Shown here piece after piece: positions 18,778 to 26,686 of a stretch of DNA of 43,732 nt. A program made the position numbers and the translations under genes. The first letter of the stretch is position 1, and each line of letters starts with the position of its first letter. Origin of the DNA: Methanomassiliicoccales archaeon. Its GTDB lineage: Archaea > Thermoplasmatota > Thermoplasmata > Methanomassiliicoccales > JAAEEP01. The stretch lies in NCBI GenBank assembly GCA_035529155.1, contig DATKXF010000043.1:1-43732 (forward strand), read 5' to 3'. The notes beneath the pieces are model-generated. The model saw only the letters and a list, made by a program, of their open reading frames with translations, did no database searches and had not been told where the DNA came from.

Positions 18778-18874
18778 CTTAGGTGGAATAGTGGTCCTCC
18801 TAGAACTTACTTTCTGGAATTGCGGTCGACCCTTCAGAATCCTTCGGGATTAGTCGAGCAATACTGAAAAAAGA

Positions 18875-18883
18875 TTTATATAT
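18875..18883. promoter_or_regulatory. TATA box (TTTATATAT) with an A-rich BRE-like flank; possibly bidirectional (dcd / btuF-like)
   Basis: 'gaaaaaagaTTTATATATcg' lies about 140 nt upstream of the btuF-like start and about 100 nt upstream of the dcd start on the other strand. Confidence 0.55.
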
Positions 18884-18901
18884 CGAGTCCATTAGACTAT
18901 C

Positions 18902-18990
18902 AGTTGGATAATTCATCCAACTCTAGATTGGACCCCAATTGGATGTATAATCCAATGTTCTCCAATCCCCAGCTGGATAGATTACCCAAC
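18902..18990. promoter_or_regulatory. Array of three 7-5-7 inverted repeats (consensus GTTGGAT-N5-ATCCAAC) plus two extra half-sites
   Basis: The repeats are AGTTGGAT-aattc-ATCCAACT (18902-18922), ATTGGAT-gtata-ATCCAAT (18938-18956) and GCTGGAT-agatt-ACCCAAC (18972-18990). Extra half-sites are ATTGGA (18927-18932) and TCCAAT (18961-18966). Confidence 0.7.
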
Positions 18991-19022
18991 ACCTAGGAAC
19001 TTGATTCCAGGGAGGAAATCAA

Positions 19023-20099
19023 TTGAAGTCAGCAACGAAGTCAATGATCCTCGTCGTGATACTGGGAATCGTAATTATCTCGATAAGTTACATGGTTCTC
19101 TTTTCACCAAAGGAGAATAGAACAGAATATCCAATTCCAGTCACGGATGCGCTTGGAAGGGAGATTACTTTCGAGGAGGTTCCAGAGAGGATAATATCCG
19201 CGGCTCCAGCAAACACCGAGACGGTCTTTGCCCTGGGGCTGGGTGAAAAGGTTATCGGAGTCACCGATTGGTGCGATTGGCCCTCAGAGATGGTCAGCAT
19301 GAGGGACAATGGAACGATAGAGTCCGTCGGCGACTACTGGGGACCAAATATTGAGAGGATCATCAACCTTGAACCTGATCTTGTTGTACTCAGCGAGGGT
19401 GTCCCCTCTCACGGGCAGGTCGCTGAACAGCTGGGTCATATGGGTATCAAATGTTTCGTTACCTGGAAGGGAGAGAACCTCACTGAGATCTACCAGAACA
19501 TAGAGACCCTAGGTGAGATTTGCGACCGAATAGATGCCGCGTCAGACCTGATAGAGTCCATGAAGGACAGGGTGGATGCTGTAGAAAATGCGATTGCCGG
19601 ACAGAGTCCCATAACTATGTTTCATGCGGTTTGGCTTACTCCAGTCTTTACCTGTGGAGGTGACACCTTCGTTTCAGAGGTCATCACGTTGGCAGGTGGA
19701 GAGAACATCTTTGCAGACCTGAACGGTTGGCCGACAGTTAGTATCGAACAGATCGTAGCCAGCCAGCCGCAGGTTATTACAATAACCGCGACGATGATGT
19801 TTTCCAACCCAGAGGATATCATACAGATGCTTGAGGATGACCCGCTTTGGAGTGAAGTACCAGCAGTTCAGAACGGCATGGTGTACATTCTCCTAGATCA
19901 GGGAGAGAACATCTTCAGCCGACAGAGCGTGAGGATTGTTGATGCCATGGAACTTCTTGCGGAGATACTATATCCAGAAGCTTTTGGGATTACGGTGCCC
20001 AATGTCATTGGCAATGATTACGTGGACTACTTATCCTCACAGACGTCAGGGTCAGTGACGACGGTTCTCGAAATGCAGGACAGCGTCGGATATGTATGA
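19023..20099 (+). CDS. btuF: ABC transporter substrate-binding protein, BtuF/FhuD (cobalamin/siderophore) class, N-terminal TM anchor
   Basis: TTG start 8 nt after GGAGG. N-terminal hydrophobic anchor, 'RIISAAPANTETVFALGLGEKVIGVTDW' and 'NLEPDLVV' are typical of the PBP type 8 family. The symbol is assigned from the cobamide gene context. Confidence 0.75.
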   Translation: MKSATKSMILVVILGIVIISISYMVLFSPKENRTEYPIPVTDALGREITFEEVPERIISAAPANTETVFALGLGEKVIGVTDWCDWPSEMVSMRDNGTIESVGDYWGPNIERIINLEPDLVVLSEGVPSHGQVAEQLGHMGIKCFVTWKGENLTEIYQNIETLGEICDRIDAASDLIESMKDRVDAVENAIAGQSPITMFHAVWLTPVFTCGGDTFVSEVITLAGGENIFADLNGWPTVSIEQIVASQPQVITITATMMFSNPEDIIQMLEDDPLWSEVPAVQNGMVYILLDQGENIFSRQSVRIVDAMELLAEILYPEAFGITVPNVIGNDYVDYLSSQTSGSVTTVLEMQDSVGYV

Positions 20100-20113
20100 A
20101 AACTGGTGTATGA

Positions 20114-21157
20114 ATGGCCAATTCCGTGATCGAGCAGAGACGACTACGATTGATATTGATCTCCATCATCGGAATCGTCGCCCTTTTCATTTTCTTCATT
20201 TCTTACCTCTCAGTCGGTGCGGTGGATTACGGCTTCTTCGAGGTCATGGACGCTCTGTTCAGTGCAATTGCAAAGGGCGGTCAGGATCTGACCCCAATCG
20301 AGGCTATCGTATACCATGCCAGGTTTCCCAGGGCTCTGGGAGTCATTGGGGTAGGGATAGGGCTATCCGTAGCCGGAGTGGTTCTTCAAGCGATCATAAG
20401 GAACCCCCTGGTGGACCCCTATATCACCGGGATATCATCCGGAGCAGGACTTGCCGCGGCAATCGCTATGTCATCGGGCATAACCTTCTTTGGGTCCCTC
20501 ATCTTCACGGTTCCCATCGCGGCTTTCATCGGAGCGATTGCGGCCTTTACCTGCACCATCCTTCTTGCGGAGGCATCGGGCGGTCGACCCATAACCTATG
20601 TTCTATCAGGAGTGGTTGTGGGTCTAGGGTTATCGTCGTTCACAACCATGATATTGGTGTTCTCAGGGGACCAGGTGCAAGGCATTCTTTTTTGGCTCTT
20701 CGGAAGCTTCACTGGAGTGTCGTGGAGCAACGTCTGGATCATTCTCATACCAATACTAGCCCTGACTCTTGGCATTGGATTGTATGCCAGAGAGCTGAAC
20801 CTCATCCTGCTGGGCGACGAGCAGGCTCGGCAGCTGGGCCTCAATGTCAAGAGATTCAAACTCCTGTGCATGGTGCTGACATCGATTCTGACAGCCTTCA
20901 GCGTTGCATTCACCGGTATCATAATGTTCCTGGGGCTCATCGTGCCCCACATCTCGAGGCTGATAGTGGGGAGCGATCACCGGATTCTACTACCCATGTC
21001 AATGCTCATGGGTGCAAACATCTTACTCCTGGCCGACATCATGGCCAGGGTGGCCGCAAGGCCCATGGAACTCCCAGTCGGTGCGATAATATCCCTGATT
21101 GGGGCTCCGTTCTTTGCATACCTCATGATACGGAAGGGGAAGGAATATGTCGGATGA
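20114..21157 (+). CDS. btuC: FecCD/BtuC-family ABC permease
   Basis: Polytopic membrane protein with 'RNPLVDPYITGISSGA', 'LGDEQARQLG' and 'VGAIISLIGAPFF', which are typical FecCD motifs. Confidence 0.85.
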   Translation: MANSVIEQRRLRLILISIIGIVALFIFFISYLSVGAVDYGFFEVMDALFSAIAKGGQDLTPIEAIVYHARFPRALGVIGVGIGLSVAGVVLQAIIRNPLVDPYITGISSGAGLAAAIAMSSGITFFGSLIFTVPIAAFIGAIAAFTCTILLAEASGGRPITYVLSGVVVGLGLSSFTTMILVFSGDQVQGILFWLFGSFTGVSWSNVWIILIPILALTLGIGLYARELNLILLGDEQARQLGLNVKRFKLLCMVLTSILTAFSVAFTGIIMFLGLIVPHISRLIVGSDHRILLPMSMLMGANILLLADIMARVAARPMELPVGAIISLIGAPFFAYLMIRKGKEYVG

Positions 21158-21953
21158 GAATGGCAATTCAGTCATGATCAAGATCGAGGGAGTTAGATTC
21201 TCCTATGGCAGTGTCGAGGCGCTCAGGGGACTGACCATCGAGGGCAAGAGAGGTCAGTTCATAGGGCTTATCGGCCCGAATGGATCGGGTAAAAGCACTC
21301 TGCTTCGCTGTATAAATGGCATCCTGAAACCGAATGCTGGATGCATATTGGTGAATGGTCATGATGTACGTAAGATGAAGATCTCAGAGATGGCCCAGAT
21401 GTGTTCGAACGTGCCTACGGAGTTCCCCGACGACTTCAATCTCACAGTTCAGGACCTCGTCTTCACGGGCCGTTACCCATATGTTCAGGCACTCTGGTGG
21501 GAGAAAAAAGAAGACGAGGACATAGTCATGAAAGCTCTCCACGACTTCCAAGTGCATCACCTCAAGGATCGCAAGATCAGCGAGATCAGCAGTGGTGAGA
21601 GGCAGCGTGCCCTACTGGCCAAGGCCGTTGTGCAGACCCCCAAGGTCATGCTGGTGGATGAGCCATCTGCCCATCTGGATCTCAAGCACAAACTGGAATC
21701 CATGGAGCATCTCCGCTCCCTGCTGGCCAATGGCATCTCGATCATAGCGGCATCTCATGACATCAACCTCCTTGCTAAGTACTGCGATAAGGTGATCATT
21801 CTCAGCAAGGGAGAGATAGTGGCCTTTGGTGATCCAAACGACGTGATCACTAAAGACCTGATCAGAGAAGTATACGGCGTGGAAGCAGATGTCATCAGGA
21901 ACAACGGGAGCATATTCATCATTCCCAAGAACACAGTGAAATCAGAGACCTGA
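21147..21953 (+). CDS. btuD: ABC transporter ATP-binding protein (BtuD/FepC-like)
   Basis: Walker A 'GPNGSGKST', signature 'SSGERQR', Walker B 'VMLVDEPSAHLD'. It overlaps the permease gene by 11 nt. Confidence 0.85.
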   Translation: MSDENGNSVMIKIEGVRFSYGSVEALRGLTIEGKRGQFIGLIGPNGSGKSTLLRCINGILKPNAGCILVNGHDVRKMKISEMAQMCSNVPTEFPDDFNLTVQDLVFTGRYPYVQALWWEKKEDEDIVMKALHDFQVHHLKDRKISEISSGERQRALLAKAVVQTPKVMLVDEPSAHLDLKHKLESMEHLRSLLANGISIIAASHDINLLAKYCDKVIILSKGEIVAFGDPNDVITKDLIREVYGVEADVIRNNGSIFIIPKNTVKSET

Positions 21954-21966
21954 AACAGTTGATATC

Positions 21967-23079
21967 ATGGATCCAAGTTCAATAGTCAGAAAGGAGATAC
22001 TATCACTTCAGAAACCTTTTCATGGGGGCACAGCCTGGAAGCTGGGCGAGATCGAGGACTTCAGCTCGAACCTGAACCCTCTCGGTCCACTACCGTGTCT
22101 GGGCGAATTGATTGCCGAATATGTGCACGAGGTGGATCACTATCCAGATGATCACTCCATGGATTTCAGGGAAGCCCTGTCCGATCATTACAAGGTGCCT
22201 ATCGACTGCGTGATCGCTGGAGCGGGATCCTCAGAGCTCATCAGGCTCTTCCCGGAGGTATTCATCTCTCCGGGGGACGAAGTACTCATTCCCCTGCCCG
22301 GTTTCTCCGAGTACACCTTTGGATGCAGGCTGATGGGTGCCAGCATCAAGAACTTCCATTTGACCGGGAATAACGACTTCAGGGTGAATTATGACGAAAT
22401 ACTCAGCAAGCTGGACGAAGGTCTGAAGGCGGTCTACCTTTGCAACCCCAACAATCCAACCGGCAGGCTGGAATCAAAGAAGAACATCCTTGAGCTCGCG
22501 GAGGAGCTAGAGAAGAGGAATGCGCTTCTCTTCCTCGACGAGTGTCTTCTGGAGCTTGTGGAGGGGAGTCAAAATCATACCTGTGCAGTTGAGGTCGAAT
22601 CTCATAGTAACATGTTCATCATCAACTCGCTGACGAAGTCCTTCGGGTTCCCTGGTCTCAGGGTGGGCTATGGCATCGGCAGCCTGGGGGTAATCGCTCA
22701 GATAGAGAAGGCTCGGCTATCATGGAATATGGGGGGAATCGAGCAGAGGGTCGCAGCCTCCTGCGTCAGGGATCACTATTCCCATGTGACTAAGGCAAGT
22801 AAGATCATCGATGGCGAGAAAAGAAGGATGTCCGAGGCGCTCAAGACAATGGGAATGTCAACAGCCTCAGTACCAGATTCGTTCTTCTTCTTCACCTCAC
22901 TTAGGGATTTTGGCTTCTCTTCGGCCGAGTTCAAAGACCAAATGCTGAAGCAGGGAATCATGGTAAGGGATTGCTCATCCTTCGGCAATGATTGCGAGAA
23001 TTACACCCGCTTCTCGGTCAGGACCAGGGAAAAGAACGACATATTCCTCTCCGCTTTCAAGAGGGTGTTGGAGAGCTGA
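21967..23079 (+). CDS. cobD: L-threonine-O-3-phosphate decarboxylase (class I/II aminotransferase fold)
   Basis: N-terminal 'HGG...DFSSNLNPLGP', 'NPNNPTG' and 'SLTKSFGFPGLRVGY' form a CobD-type pattern. The gene lies immediately upstream of cbiB. Confidence 0.8.
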   Translation: MDPSSIVRKEILSLQKPFHGGTAWKLGEIEDFSSNLNPLGPLPCLGELIAEYVHEVDHYPDDHSMDFREALSDHYKVPIDCVIAGAGSSELIRLFPEVFISPGDEVLIPLPGFSEYTFGCRLMGASIKNFHLTGNNDFRVNYDEILSKLDEGLKAVYLCNPNNPTGRLESKKNILELAEELEKRNALLFLDECLLELVEGSQNHTCAVEVESHSNMFIINSLTKSFGFPGLRVGYGIGSLGVIAQIEKARLSWNMGGIEQRVAASCVRDHYSHVTKASKIIDGEKRRMSEALKTMGMSTASVPDSFFFFTSLRDFGFSSAEFKDQMLKQGIMVRDCSSFGNDCENYTRFSVRTREKNDIFLSAFKRVLES

Positions 23080-23088
23080 GTTCGATGG

Positions 23089-24084
23089 GTGAGAACCATG
23101 TACGATATTGTCATTTACGGGATCATCATCGCTCTTGGCGCTCTTGCCCTCGATCTGGCCTTCGGTGAACCATCGAACAGGTTCCACCCAGTAGCTTGGA
23201 TGGGGTTATTCATAAGGGCCATCGATAACAGAATACCCCGGGGGAGTAAGGGCGAGAGGGCTTACGGTATTCTGCTGGCCTTTGTCACGATCCTTGTTTT
23301 CGTGCTCCTCTTCACGGTAGTTCTCGGGGCGGTGCGATTGTTCCTTAGCGCGACCCTCTGGGCAGTGCTGTGCATGATCGTTCTCAAGATGATGTTTGCC
23401 ATACACTCGCTCTCCGTTCATGTCAAACCGATCCAGAGCGCACTTGAGGCAGGAGATCTGGAAGGTGCGAGGAACGGTGCGAGAATGGTGGTGAGCCGCG
23501 ATGTTAGTGAACTCGATGCTCCGCATCTTATCTCATGTGCCTCCGAGACCGTGGCCGAGAATCTGGTCGACAGCATCATCTCTCCAATGTTCTTCATGGC
23601 TTTCGGGGGCGTACCCGCAGCCGTGGGACTCAGGGCGGTGAACACTCTGGATGCCATGGTGGGCTACGAGAATAAAAGAAACAAGGAGGTTGGATGGTTT
23701 TCTGCGAAATTGGATGATATCCTGCATTTCATTCCTGCTCGCCTTTCCATACCATTCATCCTTCTAGCATTGAAGCTAACGGGAAACGACTGGCATACTG
23801 GATGGAGAGCGGCCCGAAGAGACCATGTGAGGACCAAGAGCCCTAACAAGGGCTGGCCCATGTCTGCCGTTGCGGGAGGGCTTCGATTCCAGATGGAGAA
23901 AAAAGGCAACTACCTGCTAGGGGAAGGGAATCTACCTCAGAACCCCGAGATGATAATGGAAACCTATAGGGTAGTGAGGCTCACGGCACTAATCTTCTTC
24001 TTCGTGTTCGCCCTTCCCCTCTTCGTACTGATCGGAATACATGTTCAGATATTGATTGAGAATGTACTGCTTTCACCATTCTAG
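23089..24084 (+). CDS. cbiB: Adenosylcobinamide-phosphate synthase
   Basis: Membrane protein with 'GEPSNRFHPVAWMG', 'ESIAENlvDsiisPmFf'-like 'ETVAENLVDSIISPMFF', 'NTLDAMVGY' and 'SPNKGWPMSAVAG'. Confidence 0.9.
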   Translation: MRTMYDIVIYGIIIALGALALDLAFGEPSNRFHPVAWMGLFIRAIDNRIPRGSKGERAYGILLAFVTILVFVLLFTVVLGAVRLFLSATLWAVLCMIVLKMMFAIHSLSVHVKPIQSALEAGDLEGARNGARMVVSRDVSELDAPHLISCASETVAENLVDSIISPMFFMAFGGVPAAVGLRAVNTLDAMVGYENKRNKEVGWFSAKLDDILHFIPARLSIPFILLALKLTGNDWHTGWRAARRDHVRTKSPNKGWPMSAVAGGLRFQMEKKGNYLLGEGNLPQNPEMIMETYRVVRLTALIFFFVFALPLFVLIGIHVQILIENVLLSPF

Positions 24085-24096
24085 GAGGAACAGATA

Positions 24097-25212
24097 ATGG
24101 ACGTTAAGGTTGAATTTCATGTCATCGATGGCGGTGATGTCGCCGTCGTGCGCTTTCCATTCAAGATGAGAACATTGAGCTCCGCCATAGTTGGCGGCGG
24201 TCTCTCCACCGCGGAAGCCGCTGTGATCATGCAGGTTCCCACGAACTACACCGACGATGCTCCTGAGAGAAGGCTGGAGGAAGTTTGCGACCAGCTCGGA
24301 CTCGGGAAAGAGGTGGTGGGATTCATGACAGCAGCTCATGTCAAGAAGGTCTTCAGCGTCTCGAAGGAGGAGAAGGACGGTGCTGAGGCGGTTGTGGTGG
24401 CCACCGCTGGCCTTAGCAACGCGGTGGTGGCAGGAGAGATACTTCCCATGTACACCCTGGCGGACAGTTTCAAGGCGGGAACCATCAACATCCTTGCTAT
24501 GGTCAACATTCCCTTGGAGGATTCTGGGATGGCAAACGCCTTCATTCCCATCACCGAGGCCAAAACCTCGGCCATTCAGGAACTCGGTGCCCGGGCTACC
24601 GGAACAACTAGTGACGCGGTGATGGTGGCCTGTCCGGAAGGATCGACTTTCAAGTACGCGGGTACCGCCACTAATGTTGGTATAGCTCTGGCAAGGGCCA
24701 CCAAGAAATGTGTTTTGGAGTGTCTCACAAAGAACGGAGACGGTCCCAGGCCGACCGACTACGTGATGAGGTTGGAGGAGAGGGGAGTGACCTTCGAGGA
24801 CATGTGGGATGCCGCTCAGTCTCTCTACTATCCCAACCCGGATTGGGACACCGCGAAATTGAAGGAGATGTTCGAGTCCAGGATCAATGCGTTGAGGGAT
24901 GACATCAACGTCAACGCCCTGATACTCAGCGCCATCGCACTGGATGAGAGGGGAGAGGCCGGGAGATTGTACGGCCTTCCAAGAGCTCAGTACCTGGAGG
25001 ATCCAGTTCACCTGCTGGCGGATGAGATGATAGCCATGGCACTGGCACAGTACATCTCCGGTACCAAGGGTCTTTTTGAATATACACGATATGATAGGAA
25101 GAAACCAGGGATACTGGCCGAGCTTCCGCCTTTCCTTGACGACGTCGTTGCCGCATTGATCGGCGGGATCATGTCAGACATCTACACAAGGTTGCTGGAG
25201 GGAGGAGAATAG
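24097..25212 (+). CDS. cbiZ: Adenosylcobinamide amidohydrolase CbiZ fused to a C-terminal PgpA/CobZ-like phosphatase domain
   Basis: The N-terminal ~220 aa is CbiZ-like (RTLSSAIVGGGL..., TAA.V..., GTINI., TEAKT.A, TGTTSDAV). The C-terminal ~150 aa ends 'LPPFLDDVVAALIGGIMS', resembling the PgpA 'DDIVAG' motif. Confidence 0.75.
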   Translation: MDVKVEFHVIDGGDVAVVRFPFKMRTLSSAIVGGGLSTAEAAVIMQVPTNYTDDAPERRLEEVCDQLGLGKEVVGFMTAAHVKKVFSVSKEEKDGAEAVVVATAGLSNAVVAGEILPMYTLADSFKAGTINILAMVNIPLEDSGMANAFIPITEAKTSAIQELGARATGTTSDAVMVACPEGSTFKYAGTATNVGIALARATKKCVLECLTKNGDGPRPTDYVMRLEERGVTFEDMWDAAQSLYYPNPDWDTAKLKEMFESRINALRDDINVNALILSAIALDERGEAGRLYGLPRAQYLEDPVHLLADEMIAMALAQYISGTKGLFEYTRYDRKKPGILAELPPFLDDVVAALIGGIMSDIYTRLLEGGE

Positions 25213-25226
25213 GCGTAGGAAATGCA

Positions 25227-26045
25227 GTGAAGGCTCTGTTCTCGCTCTTCACCGTTGTCCCGGTGAACTCCAACATGGCAGATTTCGAGGACCTCTCCAG
25301 AAGATTCTGGCTTCTGCCTATCATCGGGGCATTCTTCGGCATCATCGCCTCTTTGGCCCTATTAGTTTCTTCAGAGGTATTCTCCCTATTCCTGTCAGCC
25401 GTCCTGGTGGTCTTCATTCTGCAGGCCGTCAACAGATTCCTACACTTCGACGGCCTGATGGACCTAGGAGATGGATTGGTTGCCCACGGCAATCAAGAGA
25501 AGAAGCTGGGAGCGATGAAGGACAGCTCGATTGGGGCTGGCGGGGTCGCCTTCGCCCTTTTCTTCACACTACTCTCGATCGCCGCCCTGGCATCGCTTCC
25601 TCCTCATCATCCGGCGCATATTCTGATAATCGCCCCCTTTGCTGCTGAGGTGCTCTCACGAAACGCCATGCTGGTCTGCACCTCGATGGGAAAACCCAGG
25701 CCAGGGCTTGGAAGCACCTTCGTGTCCAACACCTCACGGGGGGCCATCATCCCATCATTCGTGATATCTCTGGTCCTGCTGTCGGTCGGTTGGTACCTGC
25801 TTGTCGCTGGGTCGGAGGGGGCGTTCGCTCTCCTGGATTCGACCATGATATCACTTCCCCCGTACATCTGGACCACGGCGTTGTCCTTGATCCTCACTGC
25901 GGTATCCTTGCTGGTCGGGTGGGTGATGGCAAGGATCGCCCTGCGTAGTTTCGGCTGTGTCAATGGGGATGTTATCGGGGCAACCAACGAGATAACCAGG
26001 CCGGTGATTCTGATGGCGATCACTCTTCTGGTGGTGATCCTATAG
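25227..26045 (+). CDS. cobS: Adenosylcobinamide-GDP ribazoletransferase (cobalamin synthase)
   Basis: GTG start. Polytopic protein with 'FTVVPV', 'HFDGLMDLGDG' and 'GDVIGA', which are CobS motifs. Confidence 0.9.
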   Translation: MKALFSLFTVVPVNSNMADFEDLSRRFWLLPIIGAFFGIIASLALLVSSEVFSLFLSAVLVVFILQAVNRFLHFDGLMDLGDGLVAHGNQEKKLGAMKDSSIGAGGVAFALFFTLLSIAALASLPPHHPAHILIIAPFAAEVLSRNAMLVCTSMGKPRPGLGSTFVSNTSRGAIIPSFVISLVLLSVGWYLLVAGSEGAFALLDSTMISLPPYIWTTALSLILTAVSLLVGWVMARIALRSFGCVNGDVIGATNEITRPVILMAITLLVVIL

Positions 26046-26686
26046 CCGTCGATGCCATAATCACATCGGGAGGAAGGGGCACCCGAATAAAGGAGCTGGG
26101 CATCGAGAAGCCCATGATCAAGGTTCTGGAGAAAAGCATAATCGAGAGGGTGCTTGAGGCTCTCAAGGGGGCAAAAGGGGTCCGTGATATCTTCGTCTCG
26201 GTCAGCGACAACACTCCCTTGACCAAAAGGTTCGTGGATCATCTCGGTTACACTACCATACCCACATCCGGCAATGATTACGTCAAGGACCTAAGGGCTT
26301 CGATGAGGGAGCCATCATCCAGGGCCGTTCTGGTATGTCCTGCAGACCTTCCGCTGCTCACAAGCAGTTCAGTGGATAGTCTTGTATCGGAATACAAGAA
26401 GGCTGGATTTCAATCCTTGGCCGTTGCGGTTCCATCTCAATGCATCCTGTCAATTGGTCTGGAGGCGACCTTCGAGATGGAGGTCAATGGTAGTCCCGTC
26501 GTCATGTGCGGGGTCTCGGTCGTAGACAGGAAGGCAATGCTCTCAGGGAAGTATCTGAAAGAGGGATATTTCATCTCCCAGAAGATGGATTTTGCCCTCA
26601 ACGTGAATTCGGTCCAGGAGCTCAAGCTGGCCGAGCGAATCCTCGAGAAGAGGTTTCACTTTTCTAGATCAAGTATGCGAGCGTAG
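26042..26686 (+). CDS. cobY: Adenosylcobinamide-phosphate guanylyltransferase, archaeal CobY type (start codon unresolved)
   Basis: The frame is open from 25949. 'VDAIITSGGRGTRI..LGIEKPMIKV' is the nucleotidyltransferase GGxGxR loop and aligns by eye with the archaeal CobY N-terminus. It lies upstream of the first ATG (26114), with no ATG/GTG/TTG available. 26042 is an ATA. Confidence 0.7.
   Translation: MAVDAIITSGGRGTRIKELGIEKPMIKVLEKSIIERVLEALKGAKGVRDIFVSVSDNTPLTKRFVDHLGYTTIPTSGNDYVKDLRASMREPSSRAVLVCPADLPLLTSSSVDSLVSEYKKAGFQSLAVAVPSQCILSIGLEATFEMEVNGSPVVMCGVSVVDRKAMLSGKYLKEGYFISQKMDFALNVNSVQELKLAERILEKRFHFSRSSMRA

Follow-up and report, generated by a model that had tools for sequence, protein, structure and literature searches.

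The DNA examined here is a 43,732-nucleotide contig of a Methanomassiliicoccales archaeon (DATKXF010000043.1, GenBank assembly GCA_035529155.1), the whole of which is called the window below. In it, three inverted repeats lie between the TATA box and the start codon of an operon that begins with a gene for a BtuF-like substrate-binding protein. We consider, with a probability of about 75%, that these palindromes are a DNA operator array read by a dimeric transcription factor, and that they belong to a cobamide regulon extending across the order Methanomassiliicoccales. The motif is palindromic, occurs far more often than chance predicts, lies outside the listed open reading frames (ORFs), recurs at functionally linked genes, and is kept in relatives. 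To our knowledge archaea are without the B12 riboswitches that made the B12 genes of bacteria easy to find. An archaeal cobamide regulon with a repressor-type operator array is new, in that none is described in the literature searched.

The elements of the btuF promoter and leader, as read from the sequence, are as follows (window coordinates).

18875-18883, forward strand: TATA box TTTATATAT of the btuF operon promoter
18902-18922, no strand: O1, palindrome AGTTGGAT-AATTC-ATCCAACT, 8 of 8 arm positions complementary, covering the predicted transcription start
18927-18932, no strand: extra half-site ATTGGA, 11 bp before the left arm of O2 and part of inverted repeat I1
18938-18956, no strand: O2, palindrome ATTGGAT-GTATA-ATCCAAT, 7 of 7 arm positions complementary
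18961-18966, no strand: extra half-site TCCAAT, the mirror of 18927-18932 about the centre of O2
18972-18990, no strand: O3, degenerate palindrome GCTGGAT-AGATT-ACCCAAC, 2 mismatches to the 12-base core
19011-19025, forward strand: ribosome-binding site GGAGG (19011-19015) and TTG start codon of btuF (at 19023)

A preliminary description of the window had reported the TATA box, the three palindromes, and the two half-sites, and all were found where it had put them, with the qualification that O3 is imperfect, both of its mismatches falling in the core. The TATA 8-mer TTTATATA begins 29 nt ahead of the first T of the O1 core, and the orthologous promoter in the related genome G001 is alike. Because of this distance and the well-established spacing usual between TATA box and transcription start in archaea, transcription of btuF is predicted to begin at about 18905, within the left arm of O1. 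O1 is the putative primary operator, and O3 a putative auxiliary site. Orthologous btuF leaders could be compared from three genomes (this genome, termed G000, and relatives G001 and G002), and O1 is the sole palindrome of the three with an exact core in all of them. O1, O2, and O3 are all kept in G001, O2 exactly; in G002, O1 alone is exact, O2 is degenerate, and O3 is lost. The TTG start of btuF is aligned with an ATG in G002. The start-to-start distances of the three palindromes are 35 and 34 bp, and because the two extra half-sites are symmetrical about O2, eight half-sites follow in series, one per 10-13 bp. The pentamer TTGGA/TCCAA occurs 6 times in 101 bp of this array versus 0.28 times per 100 bp genome-wide (Poisson probability 5e-7).

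We searched the 1.785-Mb assembly for the core TTGGAT-N5-ATCCAA and found five copies, where base composition predicts 0.09; a reversed control pattern had no copies in this genome. When all 4096 hexamer palindromes with a 5-base spacer were counted, the mean was 0.17 copies and just 2 of the 4096 reached five. All five exact cores fall outside the listed ORFs of at least 90 aa, a crude list and not a gene call. Three of them are outside the window: one about 60 bp upstream of cobQ, which encodes a 612-aa protein with a Cys-rich N-terminal domain (GATase_3 and CbiA with a zinc finger-like region), another just 3' of a gene for a 194-aa winged-helix/DUF4443 protein, and the third 3' of a Zn-dehydrogenase gene. 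One-mismatch sites with A/T-rich spacers were seen 47 bp upstream of a gene for a binding protein with SBP_bac_5 and PKD domains, and between a Zn-dehydrogenase gene and nadC. Similarity between copies ends at about 21 bp and the flanks beyond are unbiased, so that no repeat-type extension is apparent.

Across the order, the exact core was present in 35 of 41 genomes, at 1-11 copies per genome, and the reversed control in none of the 41. The core was absent from five genomes of genera g9 and g3 and from one genome that is 66% complete. From 90 unique sites we obtained the extended 21-bp consensus aRTTGGAT(G/w)WWW(C/w)ATCCAAYt. Positions not used in the search are biased as well: position -1 is G or A in 89% of these sites, the spacer is 72% A/T, and the spacer position beside the left arm is never C. 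The spacer of O2 is the commonest of the family (GTATA/TATAC, 18 of the 90). The anticodon arm of a tRNA gene, TTGGATTGCTAATCCAA, also fits the search pattern exactly (L015, L016, L031); these matches are unrelated and are therefore to be removed from any site count.

The preliminary description had allowed that the motif might prove to be a dispersed repeat. Unrelated exact matches such as the tRNA arm would agree with a generic repeat, a mobile-element remnant, or chance, as would the genomes of the wider class that lack DUF4443, which match at about the chance rate (13 of 135; see below). Against this are the mere five copies in this genome, all outside listed ORFs and similar over no more than about 21 bp, the empty reversed control, and a placement at promoters of one pathway that is consistent in seven families of the order. 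We attach almost no weight to such an origin, and the suspicion of a dispersed repeat can be set aside on the copy number, the extent of similarity, and the control.

We fetched 60 site regions from 19 genomes in five families, called their genes crudely as longest ORFs, and scanned the flanking genes against Pfam; 33 more were scanned besides. By our own classification of targets, in 37 of the 60 regions the site has cobamide, tetrapyrrole, cobalt, or BtuFCD-type genes beside it. These encode functions in uptake and amidation (Peripla_BP_2/FecCD/ABC and CbiA/CobQ), salvage and assembly (CobD_Cbib, CbiZ, the CobT-like phosphoribosyltransferase DBI_PRT, and the adenosyltransferase CobA_CobO_BtuR), and ring synthesis and chelation (CbiX, CbiK, CobN, the corrin methylases of TP_methylase, and hemA-hemB-sirC), along with cobalt uptake (CbiM/N/Q/O) and a corrinoid protein encoded by a B12-binding gene. 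Seven regions flank two recurrent families of unclear role, a Zn-dehydrogenase and secreted PQQ-type beta-propellers. The preliminary description had pointed to other cobamide genes and to orthologous btu leaders as places where the motif should be sought. It was found in both: at cobQ in this genome and in the 37 regions of the order, and in the leaders of G001 and G002, with O1 exact in each and all three sites in G001.

Most sites lie near a gene start, which is no more than 320 nt away in 55 of the 60 regions and no more than 60 nt away in 45. In a crude TATA scan, the TATA-like 8-mer, where found, was 24-32 nt upstream of the site, abutting it, or directly after it, and some sites are common to divergent promoters. 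We considered the rule that the site follows the TATA box at genes supplying cobamide and precedes it at genes using B12, and make no claim for it, as the same scan gave both placements in both groups. Two B12-related genes have a site just upstream of a TATA-like box: a ribonucleotide reductase (Ribonuc_red_lgC and TSCPD; L081:2951-3040, G017), which is probably of the B12-dependent class, and a corrinoid protein (L034:2936-3017, G001). With these placements, the same protein might activate genes that use B12. Spacings between neighbouring sites were 20, 23, 26, 30, 33-35, 44-46, and 66-74 bp, and the exceptional values rule out strict helical phasing.

Some observations weigh against an operator array of a cobamide regulon. 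Sixteen of the 60 regions flank other genes without a visible cobamide link, and these include, in both G000 and G001, an exact core 3' of the stop codon of the Zn-dehydrogenase gene (in G000, contig C5:1-520). The spacings of neighbouring sites cluster at 20-23, 33-35, and 66-74 bp with exceptions, and so fit helical phasing only loosely.

The Zn-dependent dehydrogenase is a repeated target of the motif (L046, L064, L073, L074, L050, and C5:1-520 of G000), and in four genomes its gene is followed by one for a Glycos_transf_3 (TrpD-like) protein. The pair may represent an unassigned cobamide step, for the lower ligand or linker.

The palindromes might instead act in the transcript, either as a cobamide-sensing leader-RNA switch, which the preliminary description had offered beside the operator, or as stability hairpins. 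O2 and O3 are probably within the 5' untranslated region, and a folding energy of -40.6 kcal/mol (z = -3.5 versus shuffles) is predicted for the leader (18903-19030), with O1 pairing with O3 and O2 forming an apical hairpin in the predicted fold. So strong a fold is to be expected of any array of like palindromes. No Rfam family, RF00174 included, reached its gathering score anywhere in the window, and between 18780 and 19100 the only match at E values up to 10 was to a plant microRNA model, MIR827 (E 0.97). The arms are invariant at unlinked loci and in 35 genomes, with no co-variation. Neither of the two changes in O3 is compensatory and its pairing is broken, and among the three leaders compared the O1-O3 pairing is lost in G002. 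O1 covers the predicted transcription start, and at many other loci the site either leaves no more than 1-20 nt to the start codon or precedes the TATA box. With sites in such positions, the full hairpin would often go untranscribed. Some sites are, in addition, shared by divergent promoters. We regard a function in RNA as very improbable. Of the two alternatives in the preliminary description, the operator is thus strongly supported by the cobQ promoter, the btuF leaders, and the order-wide recurrence, and the RNA switch is disfavored by the Rfam result, the arms, and the position of O1.

As a DNA operator array, the palindromes would occupy the core promoter of btuFCD-cobD-cbiB-cbiZ-cobS and the stretch immediately 3' of it. 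Because O1 overlaps the predicted start, a protein bound there would block recruitment of polymerase, keeping RNA polymerase off the promoter by classical archaeal repression. The half-sites and the palindromes O2 and O3, which follow at intervals of about one helical turn, would make binding cooperative. Repression is, from the position of O1, the probable mode of action. The classical archaeal repressors (MDR1, LrpA, Phr, TrmB) bind at or after the TATA box and block RNA polymerase or TBP/TFB; a palindromic operator on the transcription start or abutting the TATA box is common to them and the present system, whereas protein family, motif, and regulon differ. TrmB of Halobacterium reportedly also affects cobalamin genes, within a global sugar response.

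The regulon would cover corrinoid uptake, cobinamide salvage, cobyric acid synthesis, lower-ligand activation, and adenosylation, and further the synthesis of the corrin ring and tetrapyrrole trunk and the uptake of cobalt. A cobamide acting as co-repressor would give feedback like that of the bacterial B12 riboswitches. Cobamide is the natural guess because the gene set mirrors bacterial B12-riboswitch regulons, and we lean toward it as effector. Where a genome has just one site, the gene marked by it encodes a surface propeller or a DUF4430 protein, which fits a cobamide signal; DUF4430 is the C-terminal domain of transcobalamins (PMC4350170).

Weighing against a cobamide signal, tetrapyrrole-trunk, F430-like, and cobalt genes are among the targets as well, and another molecule could be the effector. 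A true operator answering to cobalt or nickel, a tetrapyrrole intermediate, or S-adenosylmethionine (SAM) would account for CbiM/N/Q/O, CbiK, CbiX, CobN-like, and hemA-hemB-sirC genes among the targets and for an F430-like cluster with small CbiX and Oxidored_nitro proteins. The candidate regulator described below offers two further points of this kind, in that its gene follows that for SAM synthetase and its C-terminal domain is like the insertion domain of AspRS and not a known B12 fold. On the other side, the commonest targets are corrinoid-specific (BtuFCD-type, CobQ/CbiA, CbiB, CbiZ, CobT-like, and the adenosyltransferase), the gene set is what bacterial B12-riboswitch regulons are established to contain, and single-site genomes direct the motif to the propeller or DUF4430 protein. 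A signal other than cobamide therefore appears rather unlikely. An iron or metal box of the DtxR/IdeR or Fur type would not suit targets that are corrinoid genes; a FUR gene stood beside the site in 1 of the 60 regions, and no DtxR-family gene was seen in them.

At the F430-like locus (L059:108-2886, G028), genes for a small CbiX, a 431-aa protein, and a nitrogenase-like protein (Oxidored_nitro) are divergent from sirC-hemA across a site. These genes look like an F430 (cfb) cluster, and the reach of the regulon may extend beyond cobamides.

No regulator gene was seen in the btu/cob cluster of the window, and to that extent the preliminary description, which had remarked on this, was correct; a candidate is encoded elsewhere in the genome, on contig C94. 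It has a longer paralogue, and the two genes of this genome are as follows.

Contig C94, 8633-9217: short winged-helix/DUF4443 gene (194 aa), after the SAM synthetase gene; Pfam CggR_N/PH0730-like_N and DUF4443
Contigs C3:1-301 and C40:9-716 (split): long paralogue, winged helix-turn-helix-DUF4443-DUF2111

The SAM synthetase gene ahead of the short DUF4443 gene was confirmed with Pfam in G046 and read by eye in G000. The solved homologue of the whole short protein is PH0730 (PDB 2p8t, profile E 8.7e-19), which has no assigned function. The N-terminal domain matches the DNA-bound winged helix of CggR (PDB 7oyk and 8r3g) by profile (E 2.5e-7) and by Foldseek, and in a structure model of the short protein (pLDDT 86.5) this domain superposes on DNA-bound CggR. 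By Foldseek, the C-terminal domain resembles the AspRS insertion domain and no known B12-binding fold. The eight matches to the B12-binding domain PF02310 in the genome gave no sign of a regulator with a fused DNA-binding domain, as judged by open-frame length alone.

From its association with the motif, the short DUF4443 protein is a fairly likely reader of the palindromes. DUF4443 was found in 40 of the 41 genomes of the order. In 10 of 67 loci the short paralogue gene is followed, after 79-406 nt, by an exact site; the same arrangement is present in G000, G001, G003, G007, G019, G031, and G035. A related-locus search with the DUF4443 alignment reached almost only the same order. The gene after the site at these loci, where present, encodes a secreted beta-propeller. 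In a co-occurrence survey of 201 genomes of the class, the exact site was found, outside the order, in 30 of 40 genomes with DUF4443 versus 13 of 135 without, the latter being about the chance rate and the statistic being inflated by kinship. Spacers were readable for 11 of the 13 DUF4443-less matches; 10 were without A/T bias, and only that of G102 was motif-like. In a further family of the class, f13 (G046, G058), each genome has a single exact site, located between the DUF4443 and beta-propeller genes, and in G045, G055, and G066, from other families of the class, the DUF4443 gene and the site are adjacent by coordinates.

The long paralogue provides a further connection. The palindrome GATGGAT-N5-ATCCATC was present in 23 of the 41 genomes (control, 0), and in 19 of the 23 it is at the promoter of the long paralogue, where it lies between a TATA-like box and the paralogue's own start (L117-L135). 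Because the long paralogue has this near-identical palindrome at its own promoter, the DUF4443 family is linked to the core TGGAT-N5-ATCCA; what would set the two paralogues apart is the outer bases that each recognizes. Divergent from the long paralogue in G000 are a double-ABC gene (atwA-like) and an McrC-like gene, and the data point to a second DUF4443 regulon, tied to the activation of methyl-coenzyme M reductase.

Several results weigh against DUF4443 as the reader. The site at the short gene lies downstream of it and not upstream, and therefore the linkage may reflect only synteny with the target gene. DUF4443 is present in all five g9 and g3 genomes that have no exact site, with the recognition helix GEGSxRT unchanged. 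G021, a genome 99% complete, combines three exact sites with the long paralogue but not the short; G020 and G028, with 10-11 sites, carry the short but not the long. Neither paralogue alone explains all genomes. Kinship among the genomes also means that a Fisher test for the co-occurrence of DUF4443 and motif overstates it. Since DUF4443 occurs in 40 of 41 genomes, including the five without the site and with the same helix, the phyletic test within the order is non-discriminating. One-mismatch sites follow the DUF4443 gene in G004 (g3) and G027 (g9).

These results would be accommodated if the palindromes were real operators of the same regulon read by another transcription factor, with the adjacency of DUF4443 due to synteny alone. 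The sites in question are in the promoter of the next gene, are near just 10 of the 67 short-paralogue loci, and occur three times in G021 without the short paralogue, and DUF4443 persists in the g9 and g3 genomes without exact sites; regulator-like neighbours are also seen occasionally (FUR in one region, AbrB-PhoU in one, Zn-ribbon proteins in three). Such a factor is harder to reconcile with the class-wide co-occurrence, the order DUF4443-site-propeller kept in several families of the class, and the TGGAT-N5-ATCCA core at the long paralogue's own promoter in 19 genomes. No different regulator family was recurrent near the sites when the proteins of the 60 regions were clustered, although the absence of a rival is weak support. 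We judge another reader rather unlikely, and retain the short DUF4443 protein as the candidate.

A broader proposal is that DUF4443 is an ancient archaeal family of cobamide-sensing transcription factors, with TGGAT-N5-ATCCA palindromes as its operators, and is the protein counterpart of the B12 riboswitch; we give this slightly less than an even chance. The ancestral module would have consisted of the regulator gene, its operator, and surface corrinoid capture by a secreted beta-propeller and a transcobalamin-like DUF4430 protein. In Methanomassiliicoccales the regulon would later have grown to the whole cobamide pathway, and the DUF2111-fused paralogue would have taken an operator differing only in the outer bases, controlling itself and probably the neighbouring genes for methyl-coenzyme M reductase activation.

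Secreted PQQ_2-type beta-propellers of 500-700 aa, often with PKD domains, are a recurrent target of the motif and stand directly after DUF4443 in several families (L039:3042-5455 in G003; L230 and L231 in G046 and G058; L216:3153-5273; L047:1109-2998); in one case a DUF4430 protein comes next. A role in capturing corrinoids at the cell surface is possible for these propellers, which may be like the Bacteroides propeller BtuG. In G000 (C94:9261-9476) and G001 (L035:2837-3017), a TATA box and site are kept after the DUF4443 gene with no propeller gene next, and the two genomes share a conserved stretch of about 70 nt downstream of the site. It may be a remnant or a small transcript.

The regulons of bacterial cobalamin riboswitches (RF00174) resemble the present one in gene content, namely BtuFCD-type uptake, cobalt uptake, cobinamide salvage, and corrin synthesis, and in position before operons and presumed feedback logic. 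They differ in that the riboswitch is a folded RNA, whereas here a 21-bp palindrome in double-stranded DNA is proposed to be read by a protein. The idea that archaeal cobalamin genes are preceded by a conserved DNA signal where bacteria have the B12 RNA element is not new: Rodionov et al. (JBC, 2003) reportedly predicted such a signal in some archaea, the "CBL-box", as the binding site of a hypothetical B12 regulator. That prediction is not known to have named a regulator protein, and its date precedes the genomes of Methanomassiliicoccales. The preliminary description had called the system undescribed, and this agrees with the literature searched, in which we found no description of the motif or of DUF4443 function, with PH0730 appearing only as a list entry; the term "CBL-box" was likewise not found there, and the agreement is to be read without a comparison of its consensus.

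The bacterial B12-binding regulators CarH/LitR and AerR, which carry the canonical B12-binding domain PF02310, are mainly light sensors; like the system proposed here, they are proteins and not RNAs that couple B12 to transcription. CggR, of the CggR/SorC family, has the N-terminal winged helix matched by the DUF4443 candidate and differs in the rest of the protein, a sugar-phosphate-binding SorC domain in CggR and DUF4443 in the candidate. CggR reads direct repeats. The closest worked example is RbkR, the archaeal riboflavin regulator (PMC5397151), a winged-helix protein with palindromic sites that likewise came to light through comparative genomics; according to its authors, it has an activation-deactivation mechanism. 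As in the present proposal, an archaeal protein there controls a vitamin pathway that bacteria run by riboswitch; RbkR differs in its fusion to a riboflavin kinase domain, where the candidate has DUF4443, and the site position here suggests repression.

If the palindromes are indeed such operators, a protein regulator does in this order what B12 riboswitches do in bacteria. The 21-bp operator could then serve as a marker for archaeal cobamide genes, including unannotated ones, for which the candidates are the secreted beta-propeller, DUF4430, the 430-520-aa proteins at the head of importer operons, and the dehydrogenase/phosphoribosyltransferase-like pair. It also offers a concrete handle for testing DUF4443, a regulator family of no known function, and a handle on the corrinoid economy of Methanomassiliicoccales. 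These methanogens of gut and soil have a methyl-reducing energy metabolism that needs corrinoid proteins, and many of them appear to salvage rather than make the corrinoid cofactor.

The importer-operon heads just mentioned are secreted proteins of 427-517 aa without a Pfam family (some with weak Dockerin_1). In families f6 and f7 they are encoded by the first gene of FecCD/ABC operons that follow the motif (L055, L057, L085, L092, L017, L024, L026), in the slot expected for a BtuF-type binding protein. Upstream of BtuF-like genes in g3 and g9 (L094, L095, and L096, of G004, G015, and G023) there are inverted repeats of another kind, GTAACAC ... GTGTTAC and relatives; a different regulator, or an iron-type importer, may account for them.

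The operon downstream of the array in the window comprises the following genes.

19023-20099, forward strand: btuF-like substrate-binding protein, operon gene 1 (Pfam Peripla_BP_2, 1.3e-37)
20114-21157, forward strand: btuC-like permease (Pfam FecCD, 1.2e-88)
21147-21953, forward strand: btuD-like ABC ATPase (Pfam ABC_tran)
21967-26686, forward strand: cobD-like aminotransferase, cbiB, cbiZ, cobS, and MobA-like nucleotidyltransferase (Pfam Aminotran_1_2, CobD_Cbib, CbiZ, CobS, and NTP_transf_3)

An ORF at 20092-21177, which overlaps btuC in another frame, was rejected as the permease, as no family matched it; the FecCD frame is 20114-21157. From the tight spacing, the salvage and assembly genes at 21967-26686 are presumably co-transcribed with btuFCD. 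In three metatranscriptome runs, contigs covered parts of btuF (19052-20100) at 99-100% identity and none covered the btuF leader or the upstream region; neither strand nor transcription start is readable from such contigs. No tRNA genes were found in the window.

Upstream, and divergent from the btuF operon, is a dCTP deaminase gene. Beside its start lies a direct repeat, TGGAATAGTGGTC / TGGAATTGCGGTC, with copies 31 bp apart (18784-18827). The CbiZ encoded in the window (24097-25212) has a C-terminal PgpA-like extension, and the same fusion is found in G006 (L012).

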